Both the position numbers and the translations under genes were made by a program. DNA of 64,000 bases from an uncultured Planctomycetaceae bacterium (GTDB lineage: Bacteria; Planctomycetota; Planctomycetia; Isosphaerales; Isosphaeraceae), in NCBI GenBank assembly GCA_963833985.1, contig CAWIAD010000002.1, positions 1,376,001 to 1,440,000 on the forward strand, written 5' to 3'. Shown here one piece after another: positions 8,044 through 56,566 of the stretch (the stretch's first letter is position 1; the number at the start of each line of letters is the position of its first letter). The notes under the pieces are model-generated. The model was not told the DNA's origin, searched no databases, and was given only the letters and a program-made list of their open reading frames with translations.

Positions 8044-8063
8044 GGGGGTATCGCTCCACTCGA

Positions 8064-24410: not shown

Positions 24411-24694
24411 TGACGGTCGTCTGCGACATGGGGCCTCTGCACTACCTGATCCTCATCGAGGCCGAGCACATCCTGTCCCAGCTTTTCGACCGCGTGCATA
24501 TTCCCCAGGCCGTGCATGCCGAACTGAGCCATCCCCATACCCCCGAGCCGGTCCGACGCTGGGCCGTCGCTCTTCCTTCCTGGGTCGAGGTGAAGGAGCC
24601 TACCAAGATCGAGGACATTCCATTGCTCGGCAGAAGGGGCTTGAAAGGAGCAGGCGAGCCTCGCCGAGCGTCGTTCCAGCTCATTCAGGAATGA
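24410..24694 (+). pseudogene. DUF3368 PIN-like toxin, 3'-truncated
   Basis: VVCDMGPLHYLILI..LFDRVHIPQAVHAEL; similarity ends after GAGE, where it meets a convergent gene. Confidence 0.7.
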
Positions 24695-25017
24695 AGCTCG
24701 CCGCTCCAGTAACGGAACTCGATCGTCTCGTCCCCGCGCTGGTACCGTAGCTCAGAGGCCGGAACTTCGGTGACCCACACGTCTTTTGCCACCCCATTGG
24801 TCCGGCTGACCGCGATGATCGCCCGGTCGTTGAGTACGTCGTCGATGAATCGCCGTATCGCTTCCGGCTCGCCCGGGCCTGAAGACGAGGCCAGGATATC
24901 TGCGTGAGTATGCCACGGAAAGCTCGCAAAACCAATGGCCGTATCGCCATCGGCCGCGCGGCAGACGACGAGTTTCAGCAAGCCGTCGTTGCTCGTGTGC
25001 GCCTCGATGATACTCAA
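24685..25017 (-). CDS. hypothetical protein
   Basis: ~110 aa open frame with GGGAG SD; start approximate. Confidence 0.55.
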   Translation of the reverse strand: MSIIEAHTSNDGLLKLVVCRAADGDTAIGFASFPWHTHADILASSSGPGEPEAIRRFIDDVLNDRAIIAVSRTNGVAKDVWVTEVPASELRYQRGDETIEFRYWSGELHS

Positions 25018-25079
25018 CGGCACCGACTCCCGGAGGTCTCCCGAGACCGCCTCGCCTCGCCACGCAGGAAGGAAAGAGG

Positions 25080-25319
25080 TCAAGGGGCTTGCTGCTGGGA
25101 CGGCAGAGCCAGCCATTCGGGCTGCTGGCTCAACCACGCTCGATACGGCTTTCCCCGGATAAATCCGCCCCATGCGAGCCCAGCGAGCAGGATTGCCAGG
25201 ACCACGGCGACAAGCCGAAGCTGCCGGGTTGGGGAGCCTGACCCGGCCAGGGCGACGACGGCAGCTGTGTGTGCCCCACTTGGCGGACGCCGGCGCAACG
25301 AGGGGCCAGGGGGTTGCAT
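25080..25319 (-). CDS. small hypothetical membrane protein
   Basis: one TM segment; downstream of motif at 25355. Confidence 0.35.
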   Translation of the reverse strand: MQPPGPSLRRRPPSGAHTAAVVALAGSGSPTRQLRLVAVVLAILLAGLAWGGFIRGKPYRAWLSQQPEWLALPSQQQAP

Positions 25320-25850
25320 CGGATAAGCGAAGCGTGCCTTGAGTGTAAAGATTCAACTACAGTTCAGACGTTACACATTTCGATCAGTGTTCTGAGGGTC
25401 GCTCAAGGCTAAAACGGTGAGTCGTTTGTCCAGTTCGGCTCTCTGCCTTGCGATGAAGATGCAGCGTGATTGGTGGTGGGCTGGCGTCATCGTGAAACCG
25501 ATGGTCTTCCGTCAATTCCGTCAATGCTATGCGTACTGTCGCATACCCCACTGCCTCGACATCCACCTGCCAGCAGCAATATAAGACACATCGTGACTTT
25601 CTGAAGAGCGTTGAGTTAGAGCAGCAATTGAACCCGAGGCTGATGGTCGTCTGACCATCCAGACCGGTGGTCGGAGCACGGTATTCGGCGCGATTGAATT
25701 CCGTAAACTTCACCTGGGCTGCTGAGATCGGACGCCCGGAGTCCGCATCGAGGACCGTGAACCTGAGCGGTACATCGGCTTGTCTTGCTTCAGCCGGAAA
25801 TGGAGAGGCGTACCACCCGAGTTATACTACAACTCGGCAGGAGTCTCACC

Positions 25851-26159
25851 ATGCGAAAGCCCCGCAAGAACTATACGCCTGTCGAGAAGGTCGCCATCCT
25901 CCGGCGCCACCTCATCGATCGCGTCGCCGTTTCCGATCTCTGCGACGAGCACCAGCTGTCGCCCACGTTGTTCTACCTCTGGCAGAAGCAGTTCTTCGAG
26001 GGGGGCACGGCGGCCTTCCAGCGCAAGAACGGACCCTCTGAGAGCCAGCACCTTCGCACCATCGCAGCCCTCCGCGACAAGCTCCAGCGCAAGAATGAAG
26101 TCGTCGCCGAGCTCATGGAGGAACACATCCAGCTAAAAAAAGAGCTTGGGGAGCTTTGA
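25851..26159 (+). CDS. IS3 OrfA (HTH)
   Basis: RKNYTPVEKVAIL..LFYLWQKQ, coiled-coil C-terminus. Confidence 0.88.
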   Translation: MRKPRKNYTPVEKVAILRRHLIDRVAVSDLCDEHQLSPTLFYLWQKQFFEGGTAAFQRKNGPSESQHLRTIAALRDKLQRKNEVVAELMEEHIQLKKELGEL

Positions 26160-27125
26160 CCAAGGCATGGGTTCCCCACGATACCCGCGACGGCATCGTT
26201 GACTTCGTCAGGCGCTGGTCGCAGCGAACCGAGATCCCCGTCGCCAGGTTCATCACCTGGCTGGGGATCGCAGCCAGCAAGTTCCAGAACTGGAAGACTG
26301 GCTATGGACTGGCCAACGAGCACAATGCCTTGGTTCCACGCGACTGGTGGCTGGAGCCGTGGGAAAAGCGAGCCATCATCGAGTTCCACAAGGACCATCC
26401 CGTCGACGGCTACCGGCGACTGGCGTTCATGATGCTCGACGGCGATGTCGTCGCGGTCAGCCCTTCCAGCGTCTATCGCGTGCTCCGTGATGCGGGGTTG
26501 GTAAAGCATCATAACAGCAAACCTTCACTCAAAGGCAAAGGCTTCCAGCAGCCACTTTTGCCCCACGAGCACTGGCACGTGGACATGTCGCACATCAACG
26601 TCGCCGGCACGTTCTACTCGCTTTGCAGCCTGCTCGACGGCTGCAGCCGGTTCATCGTCCACTGGGAGCTCCGCGCGAGCATGACCGAGGCTGAAGTCGA
26701 GACGATCATCCAGCGCGGCACGCGAGCGATACCCTGACGCCCGCCCGCGGATCATCTCTGACAACGGGCCCCAGTTCATCGCCAGGGATTTCAAGGAGTT
26801 CATTCGGATTTGCGGTATGACACATGTGAGAACATCGCCATATTATCCGCAAAGCAACGGCAAGATCGAGCGCTGGCACCGCTCGCTGAAATCCGAGTGC
26901 ATCCGGCCCGGCGTGCCGCTGTCGCTGGAGGATGCCCGTCGTCTCGTGGAACGTTATGTTAATCACTACAATCAAGTGCGTCTTCATTCTGCGATCGGTT
27001 ACATCGCCCCGGCCGACAAGCTGGCCGGCCGTGGTCCAGCGATCTTCGCCGACCGCGACCGTAAGCTGGAGACTGCCCGTGAAAGGAGGGAACAGGTGCG
27101 TGCGACGACCCGAGCGACGGGTTGA
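26156..27125 (+). CDS. IS3 OrfB DDE transposase (extra indel near 26720)
   Basis: GYRRL, WHVDMSHI, LLDGCSR, ISDNGPQF, PQSNGKIERWHRSLKSE, YNQVRLHSAIGY. Confidence 0.88.
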
Positions 27126-27591
27126 TCACAGGGAGGCGATTGTCTCGTTCAGCTCGGTGCGGCTACGATGAGAGATGGCCTGGGCGGAAGGTAAGGCAAC
27201 GTGGCGACACGACCTGAGCGCCGACCCAGGGACCAAGACCGAAGGGGGCGGCACGATGCCGCCCTGTCTTCTCCTTCGGGATTGGTACGAAAGCGGTAAA
27301 TCGGTCCATCTGTGTGAATGTTCACTCTACCTTATCTTTCGGCCCCGGTTTCTCCATTTCACGCTGAACCATTACAGGCTCTTTCGAACGACTGATTGAT
27401 CGCAGGTGAAGCCAAAAAGACGAGGAGAGCCGTCGCACCACCCATCGCCAACAGCACCGCAGTCCCTTTGAAGATTCGATGCAATGGCATGTTCCACCTG
27501 GCGGTCCAAGGACGCTCACTTAACCCCGATCTGTCAACACCGTTTATAGTTCCGGCGATACACAGTATCTCGGATTCCCAGGTATGCCGAC

Positions 27592-28038
27592 CTAATCTCG
27601 AAGTCCTTCGAGCAAGTCAAATCCTTCAAGCAAGATGTCGATGTCACTGGCCAATACTTGCTCCCAGGCGTAAGAAACTCGATGCACCAATTCCTCCAGC
27701 TGGTCTCGGAACGCTTGGGTGAACGTCGCTCCGCGTGACCAGCGACGATGATATTCCAGGCCTTCATCAATGATACAAGCAACCGGGTAGGCGACTTCCG
27801 CGATAGCCGTCGAGTCTTCCCTCGGGCCTCTCCGCTCCGAGGGCACGGGGCCGTTGAGCCGACCGTTGACGGCCTCCAGGCAATCGAGGATGTCGCCGCA
27901 CAGCGGCTGAACGTCGGGGGCCACCCGGTTTCGTTCCGCGTCCCACAATACCCATCCGAAGCTCTCCGTCTCCGGGAGTTGTCCCCCGGGGAGGTTTGCG
28001 TGGTTACAAAGGCGAGCGATCGCTTCCTCAAAAGTCAT
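27592..28038 (-). CDS. acidic hypothetical protein
   Basis: 148 aa, GGAG SD. Confidence 0.65.
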   Translation of the reverse strand: MTFEEAIARLCNHANLPGGQLPETESFGWVLWDAERNRVAPDVQPLCGDILDCLEAVNGRLNGPVPSERRGPREDSTAIAEVAYPVACIIDEGLEYHRRWSRGATFTQAFRDQLEELVHRVSYAWEQVLASDIDILLEGFDLLEGLRD

Positions 28039-28070
28039 TCACGTGGCTCCCGGCGGTCAGTCATAACCCC

Positions 28071-28379: not shown

Positions 28380-28679
28380 TTCGATTCATCCTGGAAGATG
28401 AAGGGTCTCGCTCTACTCGAACCGTACAGATAATGCATGGTTGCGTTTAGTGGAGCTGCTGCGTCGAACTATATACCACCCGATGCGGCAGCAGCCAACG
28501 CGACGCATGCTTCTCCTGGCAGGAATGGCCATGCTGGAACGGTAGGTTTAAGGAAGAGGTAACAGCCTGAAAATGCGTGCCAGCATTCTGACTGATAGCG
28601 GCGGGCGCATCTCCTGGCGGGAGGCCCGGAGTCGATCGTTATAAGCTTGCATGTTCTCCCCTGTCTCGACCCATTCCAG

Positions 28680-30923
28680 CCTACTTTCCGCACATCTCCC
28701 TTTGATTTCCCCGAATTCGACCTGAGGCCATCTTCTCAGACGCGGCCCCAGGGTCGGTAAACATCTACAAGTCGATCGGCACGGGGACCTTGTTCGGTTC
28801 AGATGGTTCGCCAACCGGACCGTTCCTGAACTCGAGCCATTCTTCGCCTTGTCTTATGACTTGGCAATGTCCAGCCGCGCGCCGCGATTCTCGCCGCGAC
28901 GACTTGTGACACGGGCTATGAGCGTAAGTTGAGCGGCTCACAACTTATGTCAAGGCACATTGTCATAAGGGAATCGCAAGATTTTTTGTCCTTGACGTCC
29001 CGATCTCCTCCGCCATCATTGCGGCAAGCCCTGCGGCGGTCGGCCTGCTCCCCTCACGGCCCTGGAAGGCCCGGCGGCGGACACCGGCCAACTCGCTGCA
29101 AACCCTCCGGAGATGATCCGCATGAACGAACCTCAACGACCGCGCCAACCCGGCGAGACGGCACGCTCGAAGGGACGCAAGCGCACGCTCAACACGCGGC
29201 GGATTGCCGCCGTGCCCATCCTGGAACACTTCCTGAGTCGGCTCCGCCTTCGCGAGTTTCTCTGCGACCACCTGCCCCATGAGGACGGCCGCACTCGGGT
29301 CCCCACGGCCACGGCCTTGCTCGTCCTGCTGCGCAACCTGCTGATCTCGCGTGAGCCACTCTATGGTGTCGGTGAGTGGGTGGCCCGCCATGAGCCGAAA
29401 CTGTTCGGGTTGTCCGATGTCCAAGTCGCCGCAATGAACGACGATCGAGTTGGCCGGGCCCTCGACCGTCTCTTCGACGCCAATCTCTCGGGGTTGGCCC
29501 TGAAGGTCGCGGCCCATGCCGTACGCGAATTCGACGTCAGCCTCGACCAGTTACACAACGACTCGACCACCATCACTTTCCACGGTGACTACGAGTCGGC
29601 GGAGGCGGAGCGAACCCTGCGGGGACAATTGCGGTTGGCGGTGACCTGGGGTCATAACAAAGACCACCGCCCCGACCTCAAGCAGCTACTCTACATCCTC
29701 ACCGTGACCGGCGACGGTGCCGTCCCGGTGCACTTTCGCGTCGAGAGCGGCAACGCCACCGACGACCGCTCTCACCAGGAGACCTGGGAGTTGCTCTGTC
29801 AACTGACCGGACGCCGAGACTTTCTCTACATCGCCGACTGCAAGCTGGCCACCACCGAGAACATGGCCTATCTGCATCAGCGCGGCGGTCGGTTCCTCAG
29901 CGTGCTGCCGCGAACTCGCAGTGAGGACGGTGCCTTCCGCGGCGCCGTACTCCGGGGAGAGATCCAGTGGCGATGGACCCACGACAAGTACGACGACAAG
30001 GGACAGTTGACCGACCGCTTCTCGATCTGCAAACCTGCGAGCCAGACCACCGAGGGTTACCGGCTGATCTGGTATCACAGCACACGCAAGGCCGAGTTGG
30101 ATGCGGAGGTACGGCTGACCCGGCTGGAGAAGGCGTTGAAACGACTGGACGAACTGCGTGCCAAGCTCGCCTCGTCCCGAACCCGGTACCGCAGTCGAGC
30201 CAAGGTCGCCGAGGCGGTCGAGGAGCTGCTCCGAGACTGTGAGGTCACCGAGTGGATCTCGGTCGAGATCGAGGAGCAGGTCACCGAAAAGTTCCGCCAG
30301 GAGCGACGCGGCCGGCCTGGACAGGACACGCGGTACGTCCGAGAGGAGAAGCTCCGTTACTCGTTGAAGCATCGGATTGAGTTGGAGCGACTGGATGAGG
30401 AGGCCCGCTGTGATGGCATTTTCCCGCTGGTGAGCAACGAATCGAAGATGACGGAGCAGGATCTGCTCTTGGCCTACAAACAGCAACCGGCCATCGAACG
30501 ACGGTTCGAGCACCTGAAGACTGACTTCGTGGTAGCGCCTATGTACCTGAAGGAGGTAAGTCGGATTCAGGCCTTGCTCTGCGTGTACTTCTTCGTGTTG
30601 CTGGTCGAGGCGCTGTTGGAGCGAGAACTCCGCCGCGCGATGGAACGAGCGGGAATCGAGAGTCTGCCACTGTATTCCGAAGGTCGGGCCTGCCGACGCC
30701 CGACGGCTCGAAAAGTGATCGACCTGTACGAGGACGTTCAAGAGCATTCCCTGAAGGCTGGGAAACGCCCTCTTGAGGTCTTCAGCACAGAGTTAACTCG
30801 GCTCCAGAAGAGGATCCTGCGCCTGCTGGGGATACCCAAAGCCTACGAGATTTGAACCTGACAGGCCGAAAGACGGCACACGGAAATTAGGAGATAGTCA
30901 AGGCGAGATGTGCGGAAAGTAGG
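28680..30923 (+). mobile_element. IS1634 family insertion sequence, copy 1
   Basis: IRs CCTACTTTCCGCACATCTC / GAGATGTGCGGAAAGTAGG; 6 bp TSD TTCCAG (28674-28679, 30924-30929). Confidence 0.93.
29113..30855 (+). CDS. IS1634 family transposase
   Basis: NDDRVGRALDRL, HNDSTT, GHNKDHRPDLKQ, IADCKL, YKQQPAIERRFEHLK. Confidence 0.92.
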   Translation: MIRMNEPQRPRQPGETARSKGRKRTLNTRRIAAVPILEHFLSRLRLREFLCDHLPHEDGRTRVPTATALLVLLRNLLISREPLYGVGEWVARHEPKLFGLSDVQVAAMNDDRVGRALDRLFDANLSGLALKVAAHAVREFDVSLDQLHNDSTTITFHGDYESAEAERTLRGQLRLAVTWGHNKDHRPDLKQLLYILTVTGDGAVPVHFRVESGNATDDRSHQETWELLCQLTGRRDFLYIADCKLATTENMAYLHQRGGRFLSVLPRTRSEDGAFRGAVLRGEIQWRWTHDKYDDKGQLTDRFSICKPASQTTEGYRLIWYHSTRKAELDAEVRLTRLEKALKRLDELRAKLASSRTRYRSRAKVAEAVEELLRDCEVTEWISVEIEEQVTEKFRQERRGRPGQDTRYVREEKLRYSLKHRIELERLDEEARCDGIFPLVSNESKMTEQDLLLAYKQQPAIERRFEHLKTDFVVAPMYLKEVSRIQALLCVYFFVLLVEALLERELRRAMERAGIESLPLYSEGRACRRPTARKVIDLYEDVQEHSLKAGKRPLEVFSTELTRLQKRILRLLGIPKAYEI

Positions 30924-31493
30924 TTCCAGCTCCCGGCACCTTACATGCTTCCGGCAGCCGACGCAGTAGGATCGATCTACCATGTATGTGTGCGGATTCT
31001 TGAGATACGTCCGGATGATCTCCTCCGGCATGACGGTACGTTGGCCGCAACGCCAATGGCGGTAAACGCGCGGCACGCCTTCCAGCGAACCTTGATATCG
31101 GTCGTCGGGAGGCAAAGTGACATACTCGCTGAGCCGGCCGTCGGGGCGAAGCCGGGTGTGCTCAAGCCGATGTGCCTCATCCTGTTCCGGATCGACCCAT
31201 TCATGACAGTAGCGGCAACGTGACCAGGGCCTATCGACCCCGAGGTCACGAATGAGCCATTTCTCCTTGCTGACCACCTCAGCCTCGACGCTCAGGGCGT
31301 CGGACATCGCAGGCTGATACACGGGCCAGAGAGCGTCGGCTGTGCGTGAGCAGGCTAAGCGACGCGAAATCAGCGATTCCTGAGCAACATCGCTGAGGGT
31401 ACCAACAAAATTCCCCTCGAAGAGCCTGGTCACTTGATCAAGCTTCCCGAGGGGTGTACTCCGTGGTTTACCACAACAGCGGAGTACTCGACC

Positions 31494-32078
31494 ATGTATC
31501 ATGATTTACCCCGGACCGCCAGGCTCTGGTCGTTTCTTTGGGCTGTCGACCAGCATCTCGCAGAGGAAACCCGCAAGCAAGCATGTTCATGTGGCGGCCG
31601 CCTGCACGCCGCCAACTATCTCCGCAAGCCACGCGGCACTGCCGTCCAGCTACCCGAGCAAGAATGCCTCAGACTGAGCTTCTGCTGCGATCGCGAGGGC
31701 TGCAGGAAGAGAGTCACACCGCCGTCGGTGCGCTTCCTGGGCCGCAAGGTCTACCTGGGCGCGATCGTGATCCTCATCAGCGCCATGCGGCAGGGACCCT
31801 CGCCACGCCGCGTCCGCGAGCTTTCCACACGCTTCGGCGCCGACCGCCGGACCATCGCCCGCTGGCAGGTCTTCTGGCGCGAACGCTTTCCTCAGACACC
31901 ATTCTGGAAGGTTGCAGGCGCCCGGTTGGTGCCGGTCCTGGAGATCCTCTCCCTTCCCTACTCACTTGTCGACGCCTTCCTCTCCCGCCATCGCATCTGC
32001 AAAGGGTGGACGCTCCTGCTGCGGTTTCTCGCACCGATCACGATCCCCGGCGGCCTGCGAATCGAGGTCTCGCGATGA
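31494..32078 (+). CDS. transposon-associated Cys-rich/HTH hypothetical protein
   Basis: CSCGGRLH, SFCCDREGCRKRVTPPSVRFLGRKVY, RRTIARW. Confidence 0.75.
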   Translation: MYHDLPRTARLWSFLWAVDQHLAEETRKQACSCGGRLHAANYLRKPRGTAVQLPEQECLRLSFCCDREGCRKRVTPPSVRFLGRKVYLGAIVILISAMRQGPSPRRVRELSTRFGADRRTIARWQVFWRERFPQTPFWKVAGARLVPVLEILSLPYSLVDAFLSRHRICKGWTLLLRFLAPITIPGGLRIEVSR

Positions 32079-33374
32079 TCGCTTTCCACCCGCAGAAGAT
32101 GCTCGTCGCCGATTTTGATCCGCCGATTTATAGAGGTTGTCACGGTCCCTTCACCCGACTTGTGAGGAGATGTGATGACTCAAAGACACCCCTGTTCAAC
32201 CGCTGCCTTGTGGGCACGGTTTCGGTTCTCCGTGGTGGGCTCGCTCCTGAGCTCTCCCCCTGCGCGGATCGCTTCAGACAGCGATCTGCTCCCTTGCCGA
32301 AAAGACCTGGTCGCATCCTGTGACGGGGCGCGATGTCCGCGTCGCGGCCGCCACCATCGCGCGCTGGTACTACACGGCGCTCCACCAGCCTGACGACCCG
32401 GTCGCCGCCTTGCGTCGTGCCGTGCGGAAAGACTGCGGAAAGATCTCGCTGGCGGCGACCCTCGCCGAGCGACTCCATCTCCAGTATCGCGATCACACGG
32501 ACTGGAGCTATCAACTGCACTACGACAACCTCGCCGCGCTCTTGAAGGCCGATCCCTCACTGGGGCGGCTCCCCTCCTATTCCACGATCAAGCGTTTCAT
32601 GCAGGCTCACGGCCTGGTGCGCAGACCGAGGCTCCGGCCCGGCGGACGCCCTGGCGAAGTCCGCGCCCAAGAGAGGCGTCAGACACGGGAAATCCGCAGC
32701 TACGAAGCCACCCATGTCGGAGCGCTCTGGCATCTCGATTTCCACCACGGATCGCTCAAGGTGCTCACTCCCGGCGGCCAGTGGCTGCGGCCAATCGCGC
32801 TGGGCATCCTCGATGACCACTCACGACTGTGCTGCCACGTTCAGTGGTATCTCTCGGAGACCGCCGAGGACCTGGTGCACGGACTCTCCCAGGCGATCCA
32901 GAAACGGGGCCTGCCGCGCGCGCTGTTGACCGATAACGGCTCCGCGATGGTGGCCGAGGAAGTCACCGAAGGGCTCTTGCGTCTGGGCATCGTCGCAGAG
33001 CGAACGCTCCCTTATAGCCCGTATCAAAACGGCAAGCAGGAGGCGTTCTGGGGCACGCTCGAGGGGCGGCTCATGAAGATGCTCGATGGTGTCAGGGAAT
33101 TGACCCTGGAATTGCTCAATGAGGCAACCCAGGCCTGGATGGAAATTGAGTACAACCGCGCCGTGCACCGCGAGACCGGCAGCTCGCCGGTCGACCGCTT
33201 CGCCAAGGCCCCCGATGTGCTTCGCTCGAGCCCTTCGAGTGTAGCGCTGCGTGCGGCATTCCGCCTGGAGACCAAGAGGAGCCAGCGTCAAAGCGACGGC
33301 ACCATCTCACTGGAGGGGAGGCGCTTCGAGATTCCGGCAAGGTACCGTCACTTCCGCGCAGTGACCGTCCGTTA

Positions 33375-34727
33375 GGCGACCGGCACGTCGAGATCTACCC
33401 GGAATTGAGCTTCCCCGTTCTGTGAGATGATGCAAGGCTAGAGCCTGGCCTGTTGCCGTCTGTACACCAGGGAGGGGAACCGTCATGGAAGGATCCACTG
33501 AGTGCCTCGACGCCTTGATCTGTTCGGGAGCCAGACGGCTGACCGGATACCAGCGCCGATTGTTCATGGCCGAGGTGGCCACGGAACTCTGTGAAGGCAG
33601 CGCCCGCCAAGCTGAACGACGCTTCGGCTGGGGACGAGAAACGGTCCTGAAAGGACTGCACGAGGCCCGTCAAGGGATACGCTGTCTCGAGAATTTCGTC
33701 GCGAGAGGTCGGCTGCGCAGCGAAGAGAAGGACCCGCAACTGGCTGCGGACATCCGTGCGATCGTCGAGCCCCATACCTACGCCGATCCGGAACTGAAGT
33801 CGTCGCGACGGTACATGAACCTGTCGGCGGCGGAGGTGCGAGGAGCCTTGATTGACAAGGGCTATCCCCGAGACGCGTTGCCCAGCGAGCGCACCATGCG
33901 GGACATCCTCAACCGCATGAACTTCCGCCTCAAGCGGATTCAGAAGGGCAGGCCGCTGAAGAAGACCAAGGAGACCGACGCGATCTTCGCCAACGTGAAG
34001 GAGGTGCAGCAACAGGCTCGGGACGATCCTGAGGCGCTGGAGATCTCCATGGACACCAAGGCGAAGGTGGGATTGGGCGATTACGCTCGTGGGGGGAAAA
34101 ACCAGGACCGCCGCCGACGGTCAAGTGGCCAAGGGATGGGATCACGATCCGCCAGCCAAGGAGAAGCTGGTCCCTTTCGGCATCGTGATGCGGGTGACCG
34201 GGGTATTGATGCTCCTGTTCGGATCGCGCGAGACCAGCGACGCTTGGGCCGATGCGCTCCGCATGTGGTGGCTGCAGGTCCGGTCAGGCTTCGGGCATGT
34301 CAAGCGCCTGGTGATCTATCTGGACAACGGCCCCAAGAACTCCGGTCGGCGGACCCAGTTCCTGAAACGGATGGTCCAGTTTGCCGACTGGTCGGGGTTG
34401 GAGATTCGGTTGGTGTACTATCCCCCCTACCACAGCAAATACAACCCGATTGAACGCTGCTGGTCGGCCCTGGAGAAGAAATGGAACGGCGTGTTACTGA
34501 ACTGCCTGAAGGTGGTCCTGCAATGCGCCCTACGAATGACCTGGAAGCGCCGGCACCCGATCGTGAAACGCCTCCACGGCGAGTATCCCGATGGCGTTCG
34601 AGTCGCCGCCAAGGAGATGAAGCAGTACGAAGCTCGATTGGAAAGATCGGCGACCCTGCCGAAGTATGACATCACTATCAAACCGAGAATCACCGAGCAG
34701 CAGGGAAACTAAGACCTGCCGCTCGCC
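33375..34727 (+). mobile_element. ISAzo13 family insertion sequence
   Basis: IRs GGCGACCGGCACGTC / GACCTGCCGCTCGCC; 3 bp TSD TTA. Confidence 0.9.
33485..34712 (+). CDS. ISAzo13 transposase (two frames joined near G6A5 at 34091)
   Basis: ISMDTKAKV, DNGPKNSGRRTQF, YYPPYHSKYNPIERCW. Confidence 0.88.
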
Positions 34728-35000
34728 TTACGCCCGCTGGGACCTCGGCCGGATCGATCTGGTCGACGAGCAAAGTGGAACCGTCCTGGCTCCCATTTAT
34801 CCCCTCGACAAAGCCGCCAACGCCGACGGCCGCCGGGCCGTGACCGGGTCCGGTGGCACCGAGGTGCCGTCCCCAGAGCAGCGGCGCGACGCCGGCGAAC
34901 TGCCACCCCTCCTGAAAAGGATCCTCCAGGAGTACTCGGCCACGGGCATGCCGCCGGCCTATTTGCCCAGGACATCCCCGAAAGACAACGGAGAACCCTC

Positions 35001-35825: not shown

Positions 35826-35847
35826 AGAAGAAAGCGAAGGTGTGACG

Positions 35848-36801
35848 ATGGCGACCAGTGGCGAGCAAGTGCTTCCGGTGGTGCGTGTGGCCGAGCTTCC
35901 CAGCGATGAGCTCGCGGAGCGATGGCTGGTGGAGCAGCTCTGGTGTGCCCACGCGGTGGGCGTCATCGGCGGCGCTCCGAAGTGCGCCAAGACGTGGCTG
36001 GGGCTGGACATGGCCCTCTCCGTAGCCACGGGCACACCATGCCTGGGCAAGTATGCCGTACCGGAGCCGGGACCGGTTCTGGTTTACCTGGCTGAGGATG
36101 CGCTGCGGGCTGTGCGCGAACGTATCGAGGGAATGGCCCGGCATCGCGGTCTGGATCTCGACGAGGTGTCGATCCACGTGATCACGGTCCCGGTGCTCCG
36201 GCTCGATCACGATCGAGACCGCACGCGGCTGTGGGAGACAGTGCGGGGGCTTCGGCCTCGGCTGCTGGTGCTGGATCCCCTGGTGCGACTTCACGGCATC
36301 GACGAGAATCATGCTGGCGACGTCGCCGAATTACTCGGGTATCTGCGGTCGTTGCAGCGTCAGCTTGGCCTGGCGGTTCTGCTGGTGCATCACACGCGGA
36401 AGAACGCCGCGGACGGTGTTGCCGCCGGTCAGGGCCTGCGTGGGTCGGGTGACATACATGCCTTCGGCGACTCGAACCTGTATCTCCAGCGCACGAAGGA
36501 GCACCTGATCCTCTCCAGCGAGCACCGGTCGGCGCCGGCAGTAGCGCCTGTTTATCTGGAGCTGGTCGCCACCGACGCGGGGACAGCTCACCTGGAGGTC
36601 ATCGCAGCGCCTGATGATCGGAACGGGCGCGACCTCGAAGGGCAAGTGCTGAATCTTCTGGCTCAAGGCCGAGTGCTTACGCGAGCGAGCCTGCGTGATT
36701 CGCTGGCGGTGAAGAACGAGCGTTTAGGGACGGTACTGGAGTCACTGGAGCGCGCCGGCAAGATCGGCCGCACAACTGGAGGCTGGCGACGTCTCCGCTG
36801 A
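35848..36801 (+). CDS. AAA_25 / RecA-like (RSF1010 RepA-type helicase-like) ATPase
   Basis: WLVEQL, GGAPKCAKT, VYLAED, LVLDPL, LVHHTRK, LRGSG. Confidence 0.82.
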   Translation: MATSGEQVLPVVRVAELPSDELAERWLVEQLWCAHAVGVIGGAPKCAKTWLGLDMALSVATGTPCLGKYAVPEPGPVLVYLAEDALRAVRERIEGMARHRGLDLDEVSIHVITVPVLRLDHDRDRTRLWETVRGLRPRLLVLDPLVRLHGIDENHAGDVAELLGYLRSLQRQLGLAVLLVHHTRKNAADGVAAGQGLRGSGDIHAFGDSNLYLQRTKEHLILSSEHRSAPAVAPVYLELVATDAGTAHLEVIAAPDDRNGRDLEGQVLNLLAQGRVLTRASLRDSLAVKNERLGTVLESLERAGKIGRTTGGWRRLR

Positions 36802-36816
36802 TCATCCGGAGCGGAC

Positions 36817-36851
36817 CGTTCCGTTCCCCTTCCGGAGAGGGGAACGGAACG
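36817..36851. other. perfect 14 bp hairpin downstream of the AAA_25 gene
   Basis: CGTTCCGTTCCCCT-tccggag-AGGGGAACGGAACG, no U-tract. Confidence 0.6.
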
Positions 36852-37209
36852 ATCCTCCTGCAGTGAAATACACCACCGATTATCTTGCCCAGATGGCCAT
36901 CGATTATCGCGGCCACTCTCACGTCGGCATCCAGATCAAGATCGAGGACCCCGGTCTGGGGGATCGTGCCCCGGATGAAGTCGAACAGCTCCCCGACCAT
37001 GATGTCCGGTGGCTCATTCTTCACGGCCATCGACCTGAGCCGATCGAGGCTTGGCCTTACACCGAAACGCCTTTCCAGTTGAGACCCTACCGAGAGTAGA
37101 TGAACTCCCAATGATGTCGTCCTCCCGCGTGCACACGCCCCTACCGACTATAGACCCCGTTGTAATGTGGACGACGCGTAGGCGGCGAACCAATCGGCCT
37201 TCCCGGCCT

Positions 37210-37506
37210 TCAGATGTTATACAGAATTACCTGAAGGGCGACCAAGGCGAACACGCAGTAGCAGGCCTGCTGGGATCGCCGCAGCCACCGACGTTCATCG
37301 GCGTCGAGGTACTTCGTTGGCGGCACCGTTGCAATGGCGGTGGCCAATGATCCCCAATCTTGTCTCATTCTCTTCATCGAGCCCGGCGTCCGGACCCTTG
37401 GAATGCAGAGCAACGACCACATCCAGAGGAAGACGATGAGAACCCACAGCAGTCCTCGCAGAAAGACAAGCATCTGTAGTTCCCAGGGTTTGTTGGCTAA
37501 CTCCAA
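37210..37506 (-). CDS. small 2-TM hypothetical protein
   Basis: two hydrophobic segments; TTG start overlaps motif at 37505 (alternative ATG at 37473). Confidence 0.5.
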   Translation of the reverse strand: MELANKPWELQMLVFLRGLLWVLIVFLWMWSLLCIPRVRTPGSMKRMRQDWGSLATAIATVPPTKYLDADERRWLRRSQQACYCVFALVALQVILYNI

Positions 37507-37647
37507 CTATATATCAGCCGTTGCACTCCTCGCTCAAGAGGGACCGAAGGGGCCGCACAGAATCTCGGGTTGGAACCTGCTAGGAAACCGAACTGACTTC
37601 GCTCATTCTGACCTTGAGGACCTTCGCACGAGCATCGCCACTCAGCC

Positions 37648-39069: not shown

Positions 39070-39214
39070 GTTACGCACCCCATCAGCTGAGGGGTTGGTC
39101 AGGAACTGAGTCTTGTAGCGCAACTGATGAATTATATTTCACCCGATGCGCTCCGAGTGCCTTGCGACCGTAAGATCAGGAGCAGAACACCGGCTCCGAG
39201 GAAAGGAGATGACT

Positions 39215-39598: not shown

Positions 39599-39754
39599 GC
39601 CACACCTCGTTCGGTTACCCAGGGAGAACTACACGCCATCGAGTCGATGCGCCCCATCTCTCAATCATGGGTGCAACACAATGCATCCTCGCGACCGCTG
39701 AATTGCTGCGTCAACTATACTCCACCACTTACAGGCCCGCCGATTGACCCGTCC

Positions 39755-40330
39755 CTACGGATCGACCAAGAGATAGAGAGCGGGAGATAGCACACCGAGG
39801 ACAACCCAGCAACTACCAAGCACCCAGCCCATCATCTCCAGCCAATCAAGGCTCCTCCTCTCTTCCGAGCGGATGATCCCAAGCAGCCAGACCGAAGCCA
39901 GCGATAACGCAACCTGCGTGGGCAGTAGAAGGCCGGTGCGAAACCAGATGCCAGTCAGGCTCCGCACTGATGAGGTGCCCTTAATGCACATCGCGATTAG
40001 GAGAAGTACCGCCCACATTATCAGCCCGGCGGAGACAACGATCCCCACGATCGCGGACGGTCGAGAAGCGAGCCTGGCCGAACGCGGTTGCCTCAGCGAC
40101 AGCACCAGGAGAGCGAGGGACCATGGAACAAGGACATCGACCGATCTGGTAATGTTGTACCAGAACCATCGGATATCACGCGGCCAGTAGCGATTCATCT
40201 CAAGCCACATAAGTTCGAGATGAGGCCGCCAAAGGGCAAGGCCGGTGGCGGTAGCGGCAAGGAACACCATCGCATCGAGTAGCGTGAAGCGGCGTAGTTC
40301 GCTGGTAGGCTTCATGCTGGATTCACGCAT
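39755..40330 (-). CDS. multi-TM hypothetical protein (RRFTLLD family)
   Basis: RRFTLLDAMVFLAATA, LRQPR, DWLEMMGWVLG. Confidence 0.7.
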   Translation of the reverse strand: MRESSMKPTSELRRFTLLDAMVFLAATATGLALWRPHLELMWLEMNRYWPRDIRWFWYNITRSVDVLVPWSLALLVLSLRQPRSARLASRPSAIVGIVVSAGLIMWAVLLLIAMCIKGTSSVRSLTGIWFRTGLLLPTQVALSLASVWLLGIIRSEERRSLDWLEMMGWVLGSCWVVLGVLSPALYLLVDP

Positions 40331-41159
40331 TTAGCTAGTCTTGATACAACTCGTGAACTCGCATTGCATGGATGAGTTCAGTGGAATGTCGAGACCTGTT
40401 ATAGGTCACCCGTACCAGCTCACACCAAGAGCATCACGAGCAACGCTGCCGAGACACATGGCCGAGACGCCCGAACGCCAAACACTGGCCTTTGTTCACC
40501 GATAATACTGCATCTGACCACGCTTGACCGAGAACGCTAGTGATGGCTCACCGCGGCGTGTACGGGAAAGGGAATAGGTAGAATAGGAGAGGTACCAGCA
40601 AGATGTAATAGGCTCCGAGTATTCGACCCGTCCGATCAATCCATGTGGATTCAGGGTGGCAGCAGCCGCCCAGCCTCACAACGGCCCAAGAAACGCCGAC
40701 AGCGAGGCACATGTGCGGTACTAATTCATCCGTTTGTGTGAAAGCGATCAACCAGAAATCATCCAGCAGAGACCCTATCGGTAGTGTCCCTTCTGACATC
40801 CTTAAGGTCAAGTCTCGCCAGTCGTTCCCCGAGATGCAAGCCAAGGCCATCCCCGCGGCGAGTTGCACTATCCGGAACAGTGCAACGAACACGATCGCAA
40901 AGCAGGCGACGGTTCCAGGTTGTCTCATCATCCGCGTGAGCCGAGGGCGAGGTCGCATCGAACGGAGGATCAACAGTGATGAGGCGAGGGCGATATTGAT
41001 CGGTTGGAGAATGCAAACAAGACGGAACAGACTTCCCAGCATTCCCGTTAAACTTGGGTCGAACTGCCACCATTCTGATATGGCTCCCATGGTTTGACAG
41101 TAGATGCGAGCTAGGAAGATCGCAACACCGGTCGTCGCGACCAGAACCATGCCGTCTAG

Positions 41160-43403
41160 CCTACTTTCCGCACATCTCGCCTTGACTATCTCCTAATTTC
41201 CGTGTGCCGTCTTTCGGCCTGTCAGGCTCAAATCTCGTAGGCTTTGGGTATCCCCAGCAGGCGCAGGATCCTCTTCTGGAGCCGAGTTAACTCTGTGCTG
41301 AACACCTCAAGAGGGCGTTTCCCAGCCTTCAGGGAATGCTCTTGAACGTCCTCGTACAGGTCGATCACTTTTCGAGCCGTCGGGCGTCGGCAGGCCCGAC
41401 CTTCGGAATACAGTGGCAGGCTCTCGATTCCCGCTCGTTCCATCGCGCGGCGGAGTTCTCGCTCCAACAGCGCCTCGACCAGCAACACGAAGAAGTACAC
41501 GCAGAGCAAGGCCTGAATCCGACTCACCTCCTTCAGGTACATAGGCGCTACCACGAAGTCAGTCTTCAGGTGCTCGAACCGTCGTTCGATGGCCGGTTGC
41601 TGTTTGTAGGCCAAGAGCAGATCCTGCTCCGTCATCTTCGATTCGTTGCTCACCAGCGGGAAAATGCCATCACAGCGGGCCTCCTCATCCAGTCGCTCCA
41701 ACTCAATCCGATGCTTCAACGAGTAACGGAGCTTCTCCTCTCGGACGTACCGCGTGTCCTGTCCAGGCCGGCCGCGTCGCTCCTGGCGGAACTTTTCGGT
41801 GACCTGCTCCTCGATCTCGACCGAGATCCACTCGGTGACCTCACAGTCTCGGAGCAGCTCCTCGACCGCCTCGGCGACCTTGGCTCGACTGCGGTACCGG
41901 GTTCGGGACGAGGCGAGCTTGGCACGCAGTTCGTCCAGTCGTTTCAACGCCTTCTCCAGCCGGGTCAGCCGTACCTCCGCATCCAACTCGGCCTTGCGTG
42001 TGCTGTGATACCAGATCAGCCGGTAACCCTCGGTGGTCTGGCTCGCAGGTTTGCAGATCGAGAAGCGGTCGGTCAACTGTCCCTTGTCGTCGTACTTGTC
42101 GTGGGTCCATCGCCACTGGATCTCTCCCCGGAGTACGGCGCCGCGGAAGGCACCGTCCTCACTGCGAGTTCGCGGCAGCACGCTGAGGAACCGACCGCCG
42201 CGCTGATGCAGATAGGCCATGTTCTCGGTGGTGGCCAGCTTGCAGTCGGCGATGTAGAGAAAGTCTCGGCGTCCGGTCAGTTGACAGAGCAACTCCCAGG
42301 TCTCCTGGTGAGAGCGGTCGTCGGTGGCGTTGCCGCTCTCGACGCGAAAGTGCACCGGGACGGCACCGTCGCCGGTCACGGTGAGGATGTAGAGTAGCTG
42401 CTTGAGGTCGGGGCGGTGGTCTTTGTTATGACCCCAGGTCACCGCCAACCGCAATTGTCCCCGCAGGGTTCGCTCCGCCTCCGCCGACTCGTAGTCACCG
42501 TGGAAAGTGATGGTGGTCGAGTCGTTGTGTAACTGGTCGAGGCTGACGTCGAATTCGCGTACGGCATGGGCCGCGACCTTCAGGGCCAACCCCGAGAGAT
42601 TGGCGTCGAAGAGACGGTCGAGGGCCCGGCCAACTCGATCGTCGTTCATTGCGGCGACTTGGACATCGGACAACCCGAACAGTTTCGGCTCATGGCGGGC
42701 CACCCACTCACCGACACCATAGAGTGGCTCACGCGAGATCAGCAGGTTGCGCAGCAGGACGAGCAAGGCCGTGGCCGTGGGGACCCGAGTGCGGCCGTCC
42801 TCATGGGGCAGGTGGTCGCAGAGAAACTCGCGAAGGCGGAGCCGACTCAGGAAGTGTTCCAGGATGGGCACGGCGGCAATCCGCCGCGTGTTGAGCGTGC
42901 GCTTGCGTCCCTTCGAGCGTGCCGTCTCGCCGGGTTGGCGCGGTCGTTGAGGTTCGTTCATGCGGATCATCTCCGGAGGGTTTGCAGCGAGTTGGCCGGT
43001 GTCCGCCGCCGGGCCTTCCAGGGCCGTGAGGGGAGCAGGCCGACCGCCGCAGGGCTTGCCGCAATGATGGCGGAGGAGATCGGGACGTCAAGGACAAAAA
43101 ATCTTGTGATTCACTTATGACAATTTGCCTTGACGTAAGTTGTGAGCCGCTCAACTTACGCTCATAGCCCGTGTCACAAGTCGTCGCGGCGAGAATCGCG
43201 GCGCGCGGCTGGACATTGCCAAGTCATAAGACAAGGCGAAGAATGGCTCGAGTTCAGGAACGGTCCGGTTGGCGAACCATCTGAACCGAACAAGGTCCCC
43301 GTGCCGATCGACTTGTAGATGTTTACCGACCCTGGGGCCGCGTCTGAGAAGATGGCCTCAGGTCGAATTCGGGGAAATCAAAGGGAGATGTGCGGAAAGT
43401 AGG
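41160..43403 (-). mobile_element. IS1634 family insertion sequence, copy 2
   Basis: near-identical to copy 1, inverted; 6 bp TSD GTCTAG (41154-41159, 43404-43409). Confidence 0.93.
41228..42970 (-). CDS. IS1634 family transposase
   Basis: translation identical to 29113-30855. Confidence 0.92.
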   Translation of the reverse strand: MIRMNEPQRPRQPGETARSKGRKRTLNTRRIAAVPILEHFLSRLRLREFLCDHLPHEDGRTRVPTATALLVLLRNLLISREPLYGVGEWVARHEPKLFGLSDVQVAAMNDDRVGRALDRLFDANLSGLALKVAAHAVREFDVSLDQLHNDSTTITFHGDYESAEAERTLRGQLRLAVTWGHNKDHRPDLKQLLYILTVTGDGAVPVHFRVESGNATDDRSHQETWELLCQLTGRRDFLYIADCKLATTENMAYLHQRGGRFLSVLPRTRSEDGAFRGAVLRGEIQWRWTHDKYDDKGQLTDRFSICKPASQTTEGYRLIWYHSTRKAELDAEVRLTRLEKALKRLDELRAKLASSRTRYRSRAKVAEAVEELLRDCEVTEWISVEIEEQVTEKFRQERRGRPGQDTRYVREEKLRYSLKHRIELERLDEEARCDGIFPLVSNESKMTEQDLLLAYKQQPAIERRFEHLKTDFVVAPMYLKEVSRIQALLCVYFFVLLVEALLERELRRAMERAGIESLPLYSEGRACRRPTARKVIDLYEDVQEHSLKAGKRPLEVFSTELTRLQKRILRLLGIPKAYEI

Positions 43404-43547
43404 GTCTAGAATCGTGAAATGCCGCGTTGAATTCTGCATTGCGGGGCTTTTCCGAAGCGGGACCGTGTTCGTCATGCGTTCCTGCGCCCCCGCCTAGAAT
43501 GCTGCGTTCGACTATACTTCAGGATTTACGCAACATGCGGTCGAAAC

Positions 43548-44441
43548 TCAACGAACGATTCTCGCCTGGGGAAGGGCCTCTCCAAGCTCTTTCACTCCGG
43601 CTTCAGTGATCCTGGTCCACTTGATGTCCAGTTCCCGCAGGCTGGTCAGTGCCTTGAGATTCGCTAGTCCGGCATCACTGATCCGGGTGTAACCGAGACC
43701 CAGCTCCCGCAGGCTGGTCAGCCCCTTTAGGTAGGACAATCCGGCATCGTTGACATAGGTGTGGTAGAGGAAGAGTCCCTTGAGGCCAGTCATGCCCTTC
43801 AGGTTCGCCAGCCCCTCTCCCGTGACCCTCGTGTTAATGAGGTCAAGCGATTGGAGGCCAGTCAATCCCTTCAGGTTGGCCAGTCCCTCGTCGGTGAACG
43901 CGGAAGAGTCGAGGGTCAGGTTTTCGAGGCGATTTAATCCCTTCAGGTGAGCCAGACCAGCGTCGCCGACACCCGTGTGGCAGAGATCTAAGGCCCTGAG
44001 CCCGGTCAGTCCTTTCAGGTTCGCGAGCCCAGTGTCAGTTACATAGATACAACCGATGAATGACAGTCGCTCAAGCCGGGTGAGTTGTGCGAGGTGGACC
44101 AATTCCGTATCTGATCCCCATTCACGAAGGCTAGCTGAGACGACGTTGCCGAAGTAATCGACTCCGATGTAATTAACCAACCAGCTCGGTGCCCAGGGCC
44201 CCGCATTCGGAATCGGTTTACCGTTCTTCCGCTCCCAATCGTACCGCACCGAGCCGCCGGCTTTCTTGATCACCGCCACCGCCTCACGCTGGACCCGCGC
44301 ATTGCGAACAATCCAGCCGAGTCCGCCTCCTACGACCAGGAGCAGGATCATCAGGGCCCGCACGCTCAGCCGGAGCCGATAGCGCCTGGATTTCGGTGAG
44401 GGCTGGTCTGGTATTTCACCCCACCGCGTGGCAAGTCTCAT
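43548..44441 (-). CDS. membrane-anchored leucine-rich repeat protein
   Basis: RLRLSVRALMILLL TM, then 24 aa repeats (VTDxGLANLKGLTGLxxLxL); start 44441 or 44504. Confidence 0.88.
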   Translation of the reverse strand: MRLATRWGEIPDQPSPKSRRYRLRLSVRALMILLLVVGGGLGWIVRNARVQREAVAVIKKAGGSVRYDWERKNGKPIPNAGPWAPSWLVNYIGVDYFGNVVSASLREWGSDTELVHLAQLTRLERLSFIGCIYVTDTGLANLKGLTGLRALDLCHTGVGDAGLAHLKGLNRLENLTLDSSAFTDEGLANLKGLTGLQSLDLINTRVTGEGLANLKGMTGLKGLFLYHTYVNDAGLSYLKGLTSLRELGLGYTRISDAGLANLKALTSLRELDIKWTRITEAGVKELGEALPQARIVR

Positions 44442-44643
44442 CTCTAGCTCACCCTTTACACCATCAATTTGACGTAAGTCCGTAATCAACGCCTCGAATT
44501 CCATTGATGCGACGGGGATATTGACCCTTTACACATTGGACCCCGCTGGAGCCCGCTTGAGGGCGGTTGCCATGCGTTCACAGGTGCACCCACCTCCACT
44601 CCGGCATATCACCGTCGGAGCGACTTCGCCAGTGCCATAAAAC

Positions 44644-44862
44644 TCACTCTTGCATGCTCTCATGATAAATGGCCAACCGCCGTCGTCTCATACGGACAGA
44701 GTGCCGCAGACCGGTGTTTGCAGCGACAGCGAACCAGCCGGCCTCGACCCCGGGATAGAATGTGATCAGCAGCCCCAGCAGGCCGAACACCGCCGCGAGC
44801 CCGACGCCAACCCGAGCCACAAACGTCCGTGGCCTCAGCAACCAGGTGCGGAAGGATGGCAT
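44644..44862 (-). CDS. small membrane protein or fragment
   Basis: GGAG SD, TM segment. Confidence 0.4.
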   Translation of the reverse strand: MPSFRTWLLRPRTFVARVGVGLAAVFGLLGLLITFYPGVEAGWFAVAANTGLRHSVRMRRRRLAIYHESMQE

Positions 44863-44934
44863 CGCCGGGGGCTCCGGGTCACGAACTTGGCCATTTCTTG
44901 TTACGAGTGCACGAGGTGGGTCCAGCAGCCTGCC

Positions 44935-45159
44935 TCATCTCTGCTGTGCCTGACTTGCGGTCTGCTGAGCATCCGCCAGAGCCATCTGTAAGTGCCGCAT
45001 CACAGCTTCAGCTCGCATACGCTGCCGTCCCGCCTCGATCACCAGGAAAATCGCGGCGAAGACCAGCGCGGCAGAGACAGCCAGCGCCAGCGTCTTCCAC
45101 CGGCGGTTTGACCGCTTGAGTTGTTCAATGGCGAGGAGAAGGTCTTTTGGTTCCGTCAT
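44935..45159 (-). CDS. small single-TM coiled-coil protein
   Basis: IEQLKRSNRRWK followed by a TM segment. Confidence 0.6.
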   Translation of the reverse strand: MTEPKDLLLAIEQLKRSNRRWKTLALAVSAALVFAAIFLVIEAGRQRMRAEAVMRHLQMALADAQQTASQAQQR

Positions 45160-45361
45160 GGGAGAAGCCCCGGGACGTTTGAAGCTGGACTGGAGGCCAA
45201 CTCGACACCATTTTACTGGGTCATTGCGGAATAAAGCGAACAAGAAAGACCCGAGGCGGGATTTGGTCCCGCGCGGTGTTGTTCCAGAATGTGGTACCTC
45301 GAACGTCGCTCTCCATCGCATGTTGCTGCTCGCGAAACTTTGTAACCCAGGCCATGCACGT

Positions 45362-56518: not shown

Positions 56519-56566
56519 GAGGATGCTCCTTTGACGCATTCTATCAGGATCGGCCAGGTCCAGCGA

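Follow-up and report, generated by a model that had tools for sequence, protein, structure and literature searches.

Arrays of unrelated genes with one repeat between them are the hallmark of gene-capture systems. The attC sites of integrons fold as single strands and consist of imperfect inverted repeats some 55-140 nt long; direct copies of loxP, FRT or dif would permit excision and inverted copies inversion; and the neisserial intergenic mosaic elements and dRS3 are short conserved repeats that flank silent gene cassettes and form recombination junctions between variable gene units, which are reshuffled without a dedicated linked integrase. In the Bacteroidales, the rAID-1 arrays, as defined by Ross et al. 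(bioRxiv 10.1101/471110), are recognized by a tyrosine recombinase resembling XerD on their 5' side (identity criterion of at least 44%), at least two co-directional downstream genes, GC lower than in the host and repetitive sequence between genes, and they contain homologues of immunity genes. The present study concerns a window, namely the whole stretch of 64,000 nt analysed (G000:C2:1376001-1440000), from a planctomycete genome of the family Isosphaeraceae (10.16 Mb in two contigs, 65% GC), in which an array of co-oriented genes carries copies of a 22-mer. This 22-mer forms the conserved 5' portion of a module of ~100 nt, specific to the family, that heads gene units, and the comparison of homologous blocks between genomes indicates that gene units were likely reshuffled at the module.

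All eleven 22-mers quoted in the earlier note on this DNA were present where it had placed them. Their minus-strand consensus is GYGYAWC-N3-TGR-N2-TATAGTT, with its information limited to these 22 nt and a weaker 12-15 nt downstream. A leave-one-out position weight matrix (PWM) scored 21-27 bits for eight strong copies (25355, 27542, 28467, 37505, 39130, 39713, 43510, and 44440), for which the proposed single repeat family holds, and 4.8-8.5 bits for three weak ones (37146, 40397, and 45338), which are singly indistinguishable from chance and of which the one at 45338 is not supported as a member. The pattern GYGYAWCNNNTGRNNTATAGTT, allowing up to three mismatches, gave nine matches in the window against 0.28 expected, a number reached in none of 100 shuffles, and the supposed enrichment over shuffled sequence was thereby borne out; seven of the nine lie on the minus strand, and the other two are plus-strand partners overlapping the copies at 25355 and 39130. 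Genome-wide, the PWM returned 11 matches of at least 20 bits, namely the eight strong copies and three identical ones in a segmental duplicate of part of the array, in agreement with the earlier expectation that the motif is not generally upstream of the genes of this genome. An order-3 Markov simulation of 3 Mb produced no match of at least 18 bits, and at 16 bits or above 17 among the matches listed lay outside the island and its duplicate, compared with ~13.5 expected. Moreover, the hexamers TATAGT and TATAAT are rare (253 and 304 occurrences, respectively, genome-wide on both strands), so the motif is not the ordinary promoter of the organism.

A pattern of 20 positions derived from the window was then searched for in 121 genomes of the family with the reversed pattern as control, yielding 74 matches versus 16 (own table count), distributed over 32 genomes and 20 of the 53 genera. 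The free positions of the pattern were far from random in these matches, CGCATCGGGTGAACTATAGT recurring among them. In the other families of the class (227 genomes), ~30 matches versus ~36 controls represent background. Among 64 distinct instances in the retrieved loci, 37 align over ~100 nt, the word being followed by ~85 further conserved bases. The module comprises two related direct units of ~35 nt, 57 nt apart. Unit 1 opens with an upstream arm GYGYAWCGGGTGAA, followed by the core (C)TATAG(TT) and then by one of two downstream arms, type A (TGGCGCGGACA) or type B (TGAAACTTTACAC); unit 2 (GTGGAACGGGTGATCCAGAAATCAGACTTGCCAG), a direct but diverged repeat of unit 1, begins 57 nt later, after a spacer of ~20 nt. 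The 5' edge of the module is sharp, with no conservation upstream, and most of the conserved sequence (~85 nt) sits 5' of the gene. The copies in the window are mostly unit 1 with remnants of unit 2 (by eye), and two fuller modules with degenerate cores occur elsewhere in the genome (C2:3067846-3067938 and C2:6464351-6464430). Profile hidden Markov models (HMMs) of the units gave no match in 290 kb around an unrelated gene (80 genomes) versus 253 in 337 kb of element loci. Full-text literature searches retrieved no description of the module.

In the consensus, the inner AAC-TATA-GTT reads as a perfect palindrome of 10 nt, and units of type B form imperfect palindromes of 34 nt; type-A arms match poorly in inverted orientation, and both strands match the PWM or the pattern in just two of the eight strong window copies. 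The quasi-palindrome described in the earlier note is clear only at 25343-25376, where the plus-strand partner 25343-25364 and the unit 25355-25376 form a 34-nt imperfect palindrome, and at 39118-39151. The word TGCTGCGT(T)C was indeed found to be shared by the copies at 28467, 39713 and 43510 and corresponds to the downstream arm of the unit. Among the strong copies, the -10-like hexamer is TATAGT or TATAAT in six of eight, TGTAGT in one, and TAGAGA in the copy of the second-unit type. The distance from motif to candidate start in the window is 31-181 nt, a range slightly wider than the 0-115 bp first given for most copies. A short (G)AATTCCTTCGGG stands directly before the upstream arm in L030, L040:6230-6262, L041:7530-7560, L161, and C2:3067830-3067845, and may mark a common 3' end of units. 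A miniature inverted-repeat transposable element was considered and rejected, as the module ends are not inverted copies of each other (by eye; target duplications not searched). Extracytoplasmic-function-type -35/-10 and sigma-54 -24/-12 spacings showed no fit either (by eye, against the consensus sequences), and no intrinsic terminators were found at the sites.

Outside the window genome, 177 elements were distributed over 57 loci, 30 of which held at least three. Neighbouring elements within 2.5 kb of each other formed 108 same-strand versus 12 opposite-strand pairs with a median spacing of 618 nt, confirming that hits in relatives cluster in co-oriented arrays, and four loci of 12-13 kb from four genera contained runs of 5-10 units as in the window. 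An ORF (open reading frame) started 40-260 nt downstream on the same strand at 128 of 158 elements, compared with 68 of 158 in the mirrored direction. The downstream proteins were diverse, 51 of the 74 compared being singletons, mostly with an N-terminal membrane-anchor-like segment. Recurring kinds of cargo were leucine-rich-repeat (LRR) proteins like g11, WD40/PD40 proteins like g7, membrane proteins like g9 and g10, HEAT-repeat proteins, and thioredoxin-fold proteins (AhpC/TSA, three arrays). The last are 372-442 aa long with long N-terminal regions and come from three genera (L038:7564-8796, L041:11428-12546, and L042:8314-9642); the gene bounds the run of units on the upstream side in L041 and L042, and L038 has further small genes upstream. 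Insertion sequences (ISs) within an element array were also seen in a relative (L040:3629-5380 and 7855-9474, with DDE_Tnp_1 and IS110-family transposases), as in the window.

Homology between genomes ends preferentially at the module core. In a set of 58 loci, alignments of at least 75% identity and at least 250 nt between genomes were collected as high-scoring segment pairs; 12 inter-genome pairs provided 44 scored ends, which are not mutually independent, and a predicted core lay no more than 25 nt away from 21 of these and no more than 40 nt away from 29. For random positions, 2000 draws gave means of 2.2 and 3.2 with maxima of 9 and 10, respectively, and the coincidence of gene-content breakpoints with the motif, as anticipated in the earlier note, was thus upheld between genomes (21 of 44). 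Since the ends are non-independent and alignments tend to stop between genes, the informative cases are near-identical blocks with unalignable neighbours. The clearest is a 665-nt element-plus-gene unit with 96.8% identity in two genera (98% over the gene; L060:2417-3080 of G098 and L065:2360-3024 of G048), in which identity starts two bases ahead of the ATAG of one unit and stops after the GAACTAT of the next, the flanks being unrelated. This near-identity points to a recent transfer between genera. Within one genus, L052 and L054 share 95.6% identity over 1,222 nt, starting at a degenerate core TATC behind unlike upstream arms, and the identity drops to the usual level between copies right past the next core.

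Further pairs showed the same tendency. In L022/L044 and L019/L034, the upstream gene, arm, and core are common, and the sequences split directly past TATAGT(TG) into a type-A versus a type-B arm; in L041/L052, similarity begins at TATAGTT, its other end lying just past a stop codon, 25-35 nt short of the next core. Of eight boundaries read by eye, a small sample, seven fall at module positions 14-24, within ~6 nt of the TATA core. Furthermore, an LRR gene (81% identity) stands behind a module of type B in one genome and behind one of type A in a second, and the gene of the L060 unit, found in nine genomes of nine genera, has the module ahead of it in four of eight aligned loci and unrelated sequence in the other four. 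The L060 unit ends in head-to-head upstream arms across TATA (L060:3059-3098), a structure also present at both palindromic sites of the window. Reciprocal junctions (downstream arm-core-downstream arm) were absent from L060, and three CAACTATAGTTG sites in L051 and L065 were ambiguous. Within the window genome, a paralogous g13-g1 pair located 4.4 Mb away (C2:5798453-5799237) is adjacent, with a 33-nt spacer and 75-79% nt identity, the g1 paralog (C2:5798.8-5799.2 kb) seeming to shift frame near its 5' end. In the window, g13 and g1 are kept apart by 19.7 kb (g2-g12 and the ISs), so the block 25153-44907 separates a pair that is adjacent elsewhere in the genome.

Considering the cassette reading, tyrosine recombinases were searched for near the elements. 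The genome has 13 PF00589 matches, the nearest ~700 kb from the window. In five relatives with ~19 element loci, a recombinase was near one locus among the matches listed, and none other was found on array contigs or within ~70 kb of pattern matches; that single case is a broken fragment 1.5 kb upstream of a solitary element (G083:C9), a lead that proved not general. Proximity to a tyrosine recombinase, one of the checks proposed in the earlier note, was thus not seen among the matches listed beyond this fragment. A second lead, a 17-bit site with core TATG overlapping the end of a PF00589 fragment (C2:2122195-2122479; L168:5153-5479), was rejected as being within chance expectation; this site lies 2 kb downstream of a recombinase frame that is intact (367 aa).

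Taken together, we favour, with a probability of about 0.45, a reading in which the module serves as a promoter/operator-type 5' signal common to the units and, at the same time, as the site at which recombination between its copies exchanges units. TATAGT would take the role of a -10-like element, and transcription would begin in the downstream arm, GC-rich in type A or AT-rich in type B. Because no -35 is found, a dedicated factor may recognize the upstream arm, and unit 2 would likewise be a site for a dedicated factor, the swapping of units being driven by homology between copies and not by a dedicated enzyme. The conserved ~85 nt that lie 5' of the gene and travel with it fit the shared promoter or operator, which the earlier note had named as an alternative to its cassettes, at least as well. 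Several points weigh against this reading. A sigma-70 consensus scan picks up none of the sites, and a conserved -35 is missing, there being no information upstream of the 22-mer, and, as TATAAT-like hexamers are not the general promoter of the genome, the -10 assignment is by analogy. The identical tracts between copies, as read from the alignments, span ~14-17 nt around the core, which is little for ordinary homologous recombination, and segment ends tend to fall intergenically anyway, only the 95-97% blocks with unalignable neighbours (L060/L065 and L052/L054) being free of that bias. The g13/g1 paralogs, in turn, break at the g1 start codon and 27 nt past the g13 stop, where no core is recognizable. 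Moreover, the clustering of switch points at module positions 14-24 would also result from a site-specific crossover within an overlap of 8 nt, and the head-to-head arms sharing TATA (L060:3059-3098; window 39118-39151 and 25343-25376) are equally what exchange at a symmetric core would be expected to produce. These last two points lead to the main alternative, possible though less probable, in which the unit is a lox- or dif-like core site (~14-nt arm, ~8-nt overlap (C)TATAG(TT), ~14-nt arm) where an unlinked recombinase would exchange, insert, delete, and invert cassettes, unit 2 being an accessory binding site and each cassette carrying its own 5' region. It would account for the seven of eight boundaries in the core, for the 665-nt unit running core to core between unrelated flanks, for conservation peaking in the core and the adjoining arm, as a requirement for overlap identity predicts, for the strong co-orientation of the arrays, and for the below-host GC of the array in the window. 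On the other side, no recombinase is linked save the broken fragment, and no integron integrase is present; the arms are weakly inverted copies of each other with two unlike downstream types; the search for reciprocal junctions yielded nothing in L060 and ambiguous sites elsewhere; the boundaries are few and read by eye; the ~85 conserved nt 5' of the gene exceed what a core site needs; and recombination in the sole invariant tract of the module predicts an identical clustering of switch points. By extension, and just as tentatively, Isosphaeraceae might carry an integron-independent cassette platform with ~34-nt arm-TATAG-arm sites, at which an unlinked recombinase inserts, excises, inverts, and passes units between genera, each bringing a promoter-bearing 5' module; as each cassette would have such a module of its own, arrays could sit anywhere in the chromosome. 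The promoter-type and lox-like readings are not mutually exclusive.

Explanations with no exchange at the module, or with another kind of site, appear less probable. It is unlikely that the module is solely the signal of a regulon, i.e. a promoter and operator under one regulator or alternative sigma factor, with block ends being trivial, since alignments stop in fast-evolving intergenic DNA, and with no mobility. Its position upstream of and co-oriented with genes, the many separate loci per genome, and the functional-regulon look of diverse proteins sharing an N-terminal membrane-anchor pattern with recurrent LRR, WD40/PD40, HEAT, and thioredoxin folds would suit such a signal; however, the whole 100 nt, types A and B included, is conserved before unrelated genes across genera, which indicates common descent and not convergent binding sites, the 95-97% blocks have unalignable neighbours on both sides, and a single gene is found both headed by the module and devoid of it, or headed by type A or B. 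A transcribed structured leader or small RNA, or the promoter of a phage-type single-subunit RNA polymerase, is very improbable: the 22-nt length and the ...CTATAG ending do recall T7/SP6-type promoters, and the element does lie in the 5' region of genes, but RNAalifold on 37 copies predicted 0 pairs and Rfam had no match over the elements (the window matches being a group II intron only), results that point to a DNA-level signal and speak against a structured RNA, and no PF00940 match was found in the genome, an absence that 14 control genomes equally without match leave unproven. A leader peptide was suggested by an ATG at +46 in frame with the gene in some copies, yet indels between copies speak against a coding leader. 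Least probable of all is a true integron array whose attC sites are recombined as folded single strands by IntI. The co-oriented small ORFs of unknown function, the low GC, the intergenic repeat, and a downstream arm starting with GTTGR, similar to the GTTRRRY core site, are shared with integrons; against this, the best TIGR02249 match in the whole genome reached 98.9 bits versus a cut-off of 265, the closest tyrosine recombinase is as distant as stated above, the unit measures 22-38 nt and not at least 55 nt, the repeat is for the most part 5' of the gene, and in single-stranded form 13 of 15 units showed no folding advantage over shuffles, with no consensus structure. The two exceptions are head-to-head sites, and among the window units hairpin potential is real only at 39118-39151 (z -3.8). 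The remark of the earlier note that no integrase or attC hairpin is visible thus holds; its cassette idea survives the tests of enrichment, co-orientation, breakpoints, and scarcity upstream of genes in general, whereas an integron-like mechanism, for which no integrase, no linked recombinase, and no hairpins were found, is not supported.

Table 1. Array, mobile insertions, unit copies, and selected genes in the window (LOO, leave-one-out PWM score in bits)
Feature	Coordinates	Strand	Remarks
Co-oriented array of 13-14 gene units (g1-g13)	24685..45359	-	Interrupted by four IS/transposon insertions
g1	24685..25173	-	Homology-supported ATG 25173
Unit 1 copy, core TGTA, type-B downstream arm GAATCTTTACAC	25355..25376	-	LOO 21.8; 181 nt before g1 ATG 25173
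IS, 1,596 nt	25781..27376	+	Splits g2; target duplication GGCT; at least 4 more copies in genome
Unit 1 copy, core TATA then AAC	27542..27563	-	LOO 21.7; 51 nt before g2 ATG 27490
Unit 1 copy, downstream arm CGACGCAGCA	28467..28488	-	LOO 22.1; 87 nt before g4 ATG 28379
IS, 2,244 nt (580-aa DUF4277/DDE transposase)	28680..30923	+	In g5; 6-nt target duplication; >20 genome copies
Transposon, 5.6 kb (rve integrase-type transposase, AAA_22 and AAA_25 ATPases)	31341..36921	+	In g5
Nested IS, 1,360 nt (ISAZ013-type transposase, two frames)	33371-34730		Inside the 5.6-kb transposon
Weak copy, TATAGTC kept, upstream arm lost	37146..37167	-	LOO 4.8; upstream of g5; singly not significant
Best unit 1 copy, 0 mismatches to pattern	37505..37526	-	LOO 27.2; 31 nt before g6 ATG 37473
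g7, WD40 beta-propeller, N-terminal hydrophobic segment	37648..39123	-	Element-headed relatives in two other genomes
Head-to-head upstream arms, common TATA core	39118..39151	.	Minus unit 39130-39151 before g7 (LOO 25.4), plus partner 39118-39139
Unit 1 copy, downstream arm GACGCAGCA	39713..39734	-	LOO 22.5; degenerate second unit ~50 nt on; 114 nt before g8 ATG 39598
g9, multi-pass membrane protein	39755..40330	-	Distant g10 paralog (24% identity)
Weak copy, core TATA then ACA	40397..40418	-	LOO 8.5; before g9; singly not significant
IS, 2,244 nt, second copy	41160..43403	-	In g10; target duplication GTCTAG
Unit 1 copy, downstream arm GAACGCAGCA	43510..43531	-	LOO 21.5; 34 nt before g10 ATG 43475
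g11, LRR protein, N-terminal membrane-anchor-like segment	43548..44504	-	Element-headed relatives in L043, L049, L063
Unit-2-type copy, core TAGA, tail GAGACTTGCCAC	44440..44461	-	LOO 21.2; aligns to module positions 59-95; before likely g11 start
Weak copy, membership unsupported	45338..45359	-	LOO 8.2; no nhmmer match

The array occupies a low-GC stretch between a purine-nucleoside-phosphorylase (PNP)-like gene (23188-23958, plus strand) and the DUF4058 gene g14 (45476-46264); once the insertions are removed, it measures 8,987 nt with 58.6% GC, compared with 65.1% in the flanks. The insertion-free island holds 13-14 ORFs, all on the minus strand, and the 14 minus-strand ORFs counted agree with the figure of about 14 genes given before. 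The nearest public homologues of the PNP-like gene are from metagenome-assembled genomes, several of them Isosphaeraceae (85-90% aa identity), followed by Tautonia sociabilis (82%). In one relative (L084), a PSCyt-type match 1.3 kb past the PNP gene hints that the intervening 23 kb is variable, although this match spans 57 aa only and belongs to a multi-copy family. The gene g14 directly adjoins the upstream end of the array and is one of three DUF4058 genes in the window (21907-22686, 45476-46264, and 55778-56662), with at least eight further paralogs in the genome. A group II intron lies at 15346-17288 (Rfam domains D1-D4 at 15346-15486, 3' domain at 17206-17288, and a reverse transcriptase/maturase ORF at 15851-17149).

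Four mobile elements, each with a target-site duplication, are inserted in the array and split g2, g5, and g10, of which g5 is whole in the segmental duplicate (L001:9268-9993). This duplicate carries g1-g5 at 99% identity, window 24133-37131 without the ISs corresponding to C2:1453097-1458013 (L001:5097-10013), 53 kb downstream, and holds other IS insertions than the window copy. It was considered as a test of motif-bounded mobility and set aside, since its right end is an IS copy without target duplication, which indicates an IS-mediated origin that is uninformative on the motif, and its left end (24133) has no motif. The genome bears a heavy load of ISs, with >20 near-identical copies of the 2,244-nt IS, at least eight of the ISAZ013-type 1.36-kb IS, and ~5 of the 5.6-kb rve/AAA transposon. 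In addition, the block composed of the 2,244-nt IS, the 417-nt middle piece of g5, and the 5.6-kb transposon (window 28677-33377 and 34728-36921) recurs with 99.6% identity at C2:5875171-5882060, a copy that has no nested IS and in which the g5 piece was seemingly carried along.

Most array products have basic residues followed by a hydrophobic helix at the N-terminus (by eye). Pfam families were assigned only to g7 (WD40), g11 (LRR), and g14 (DUF4058), and NCBIfam, PADLOC, and the protein atlas added nothing useful on cargo function. Homologues of g9 numbered only four among 5.8 billion proteins. The genes g4 and g3b are separated by 33 nt with no unit between them, and the island part 37132-41159 had no DNA match in 40 relatives besides WD40 repeats. 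The idea that the upstream repeats are a by-product of gene duplication was discarded, as only g9 and g10 are related among the array proteins. A tie between the motif and the g1 family was likewise rejected, given that none of five g1 homologues from other genomes has the motif within 1.5 kb or g13 as a neighbour.

Should the module be a portable promoter where units are swapped, it would offer a simple route towards assembling and reshuffling sets of co-regulated surface or membrane proteins; should it be a recombinase site, a new cassette system would be at hand. Under either reading, the module HMM provides a sequence handle for hypervariable loci in a poorly studied phylum, and the element, at 34-100 nt, is a defined one for planctomycete genetics. 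Like integron arrays as generally described, the present arrays consist of co-oriented small genes of mostly unknown function with one repeat family between them and what are likely exchange junctions at a short core next to GTT; unlike them, they have no integrase and no imperfect hairpin of 55-140 nt, the repeat is mostly 5' of the gene, and the arrays are scattered over many loci. The unit resembles loxP, FRT, and dif in its length of ~34-36 nt, its two arms around a conserved centre of 6-8 nt, and switch points in that centre, and differs in that its arms are poor inverted copies, its downstream arm is of two types, its central TATA is symmetric, and no recombinase, the broken fragment aside, is linked to the candidate site. 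Like the neisserial repeats, the module stands between variable gene units as a probable recombination junction with no linked integrase; with dRS3, it shares neither sequence nor taxon, and dRS3 is not a fixed 5' module with a -10-like core.

With the rAID-1 arrays (10.1101/471110), the likeness extends to co-directional arrays of many small unrelated genes, a GC content below that of the host, gene content that varies between genomes, and repetitive intergenic sequences, which were called reminiscent of integrons there. The arrays studied here differ in having no PF00589 match near the window or on the array contigs of relatives, save the fragment near the solitary element, in having no immunity family among the window genes (Pfam, NCBIfam, and PADLOC), in belonging to another phylum, and in showing many arrays per genome with a two-unit module of ~100 nt 5' of each gene; in the cargo of relatives (57 ORFs), DUF4279, zf_Tbcl, and ParE were the only matches bearing on this point. 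In architecture, the system is closest to rAID-1 and integron arrays while failing the defining features of both, and it represents a gene-capture-like organization in large-genome soil planctomycetes without a linked integrase, in which each gene has the repeat on its 5' side and two genera share at least one near-identical unit.

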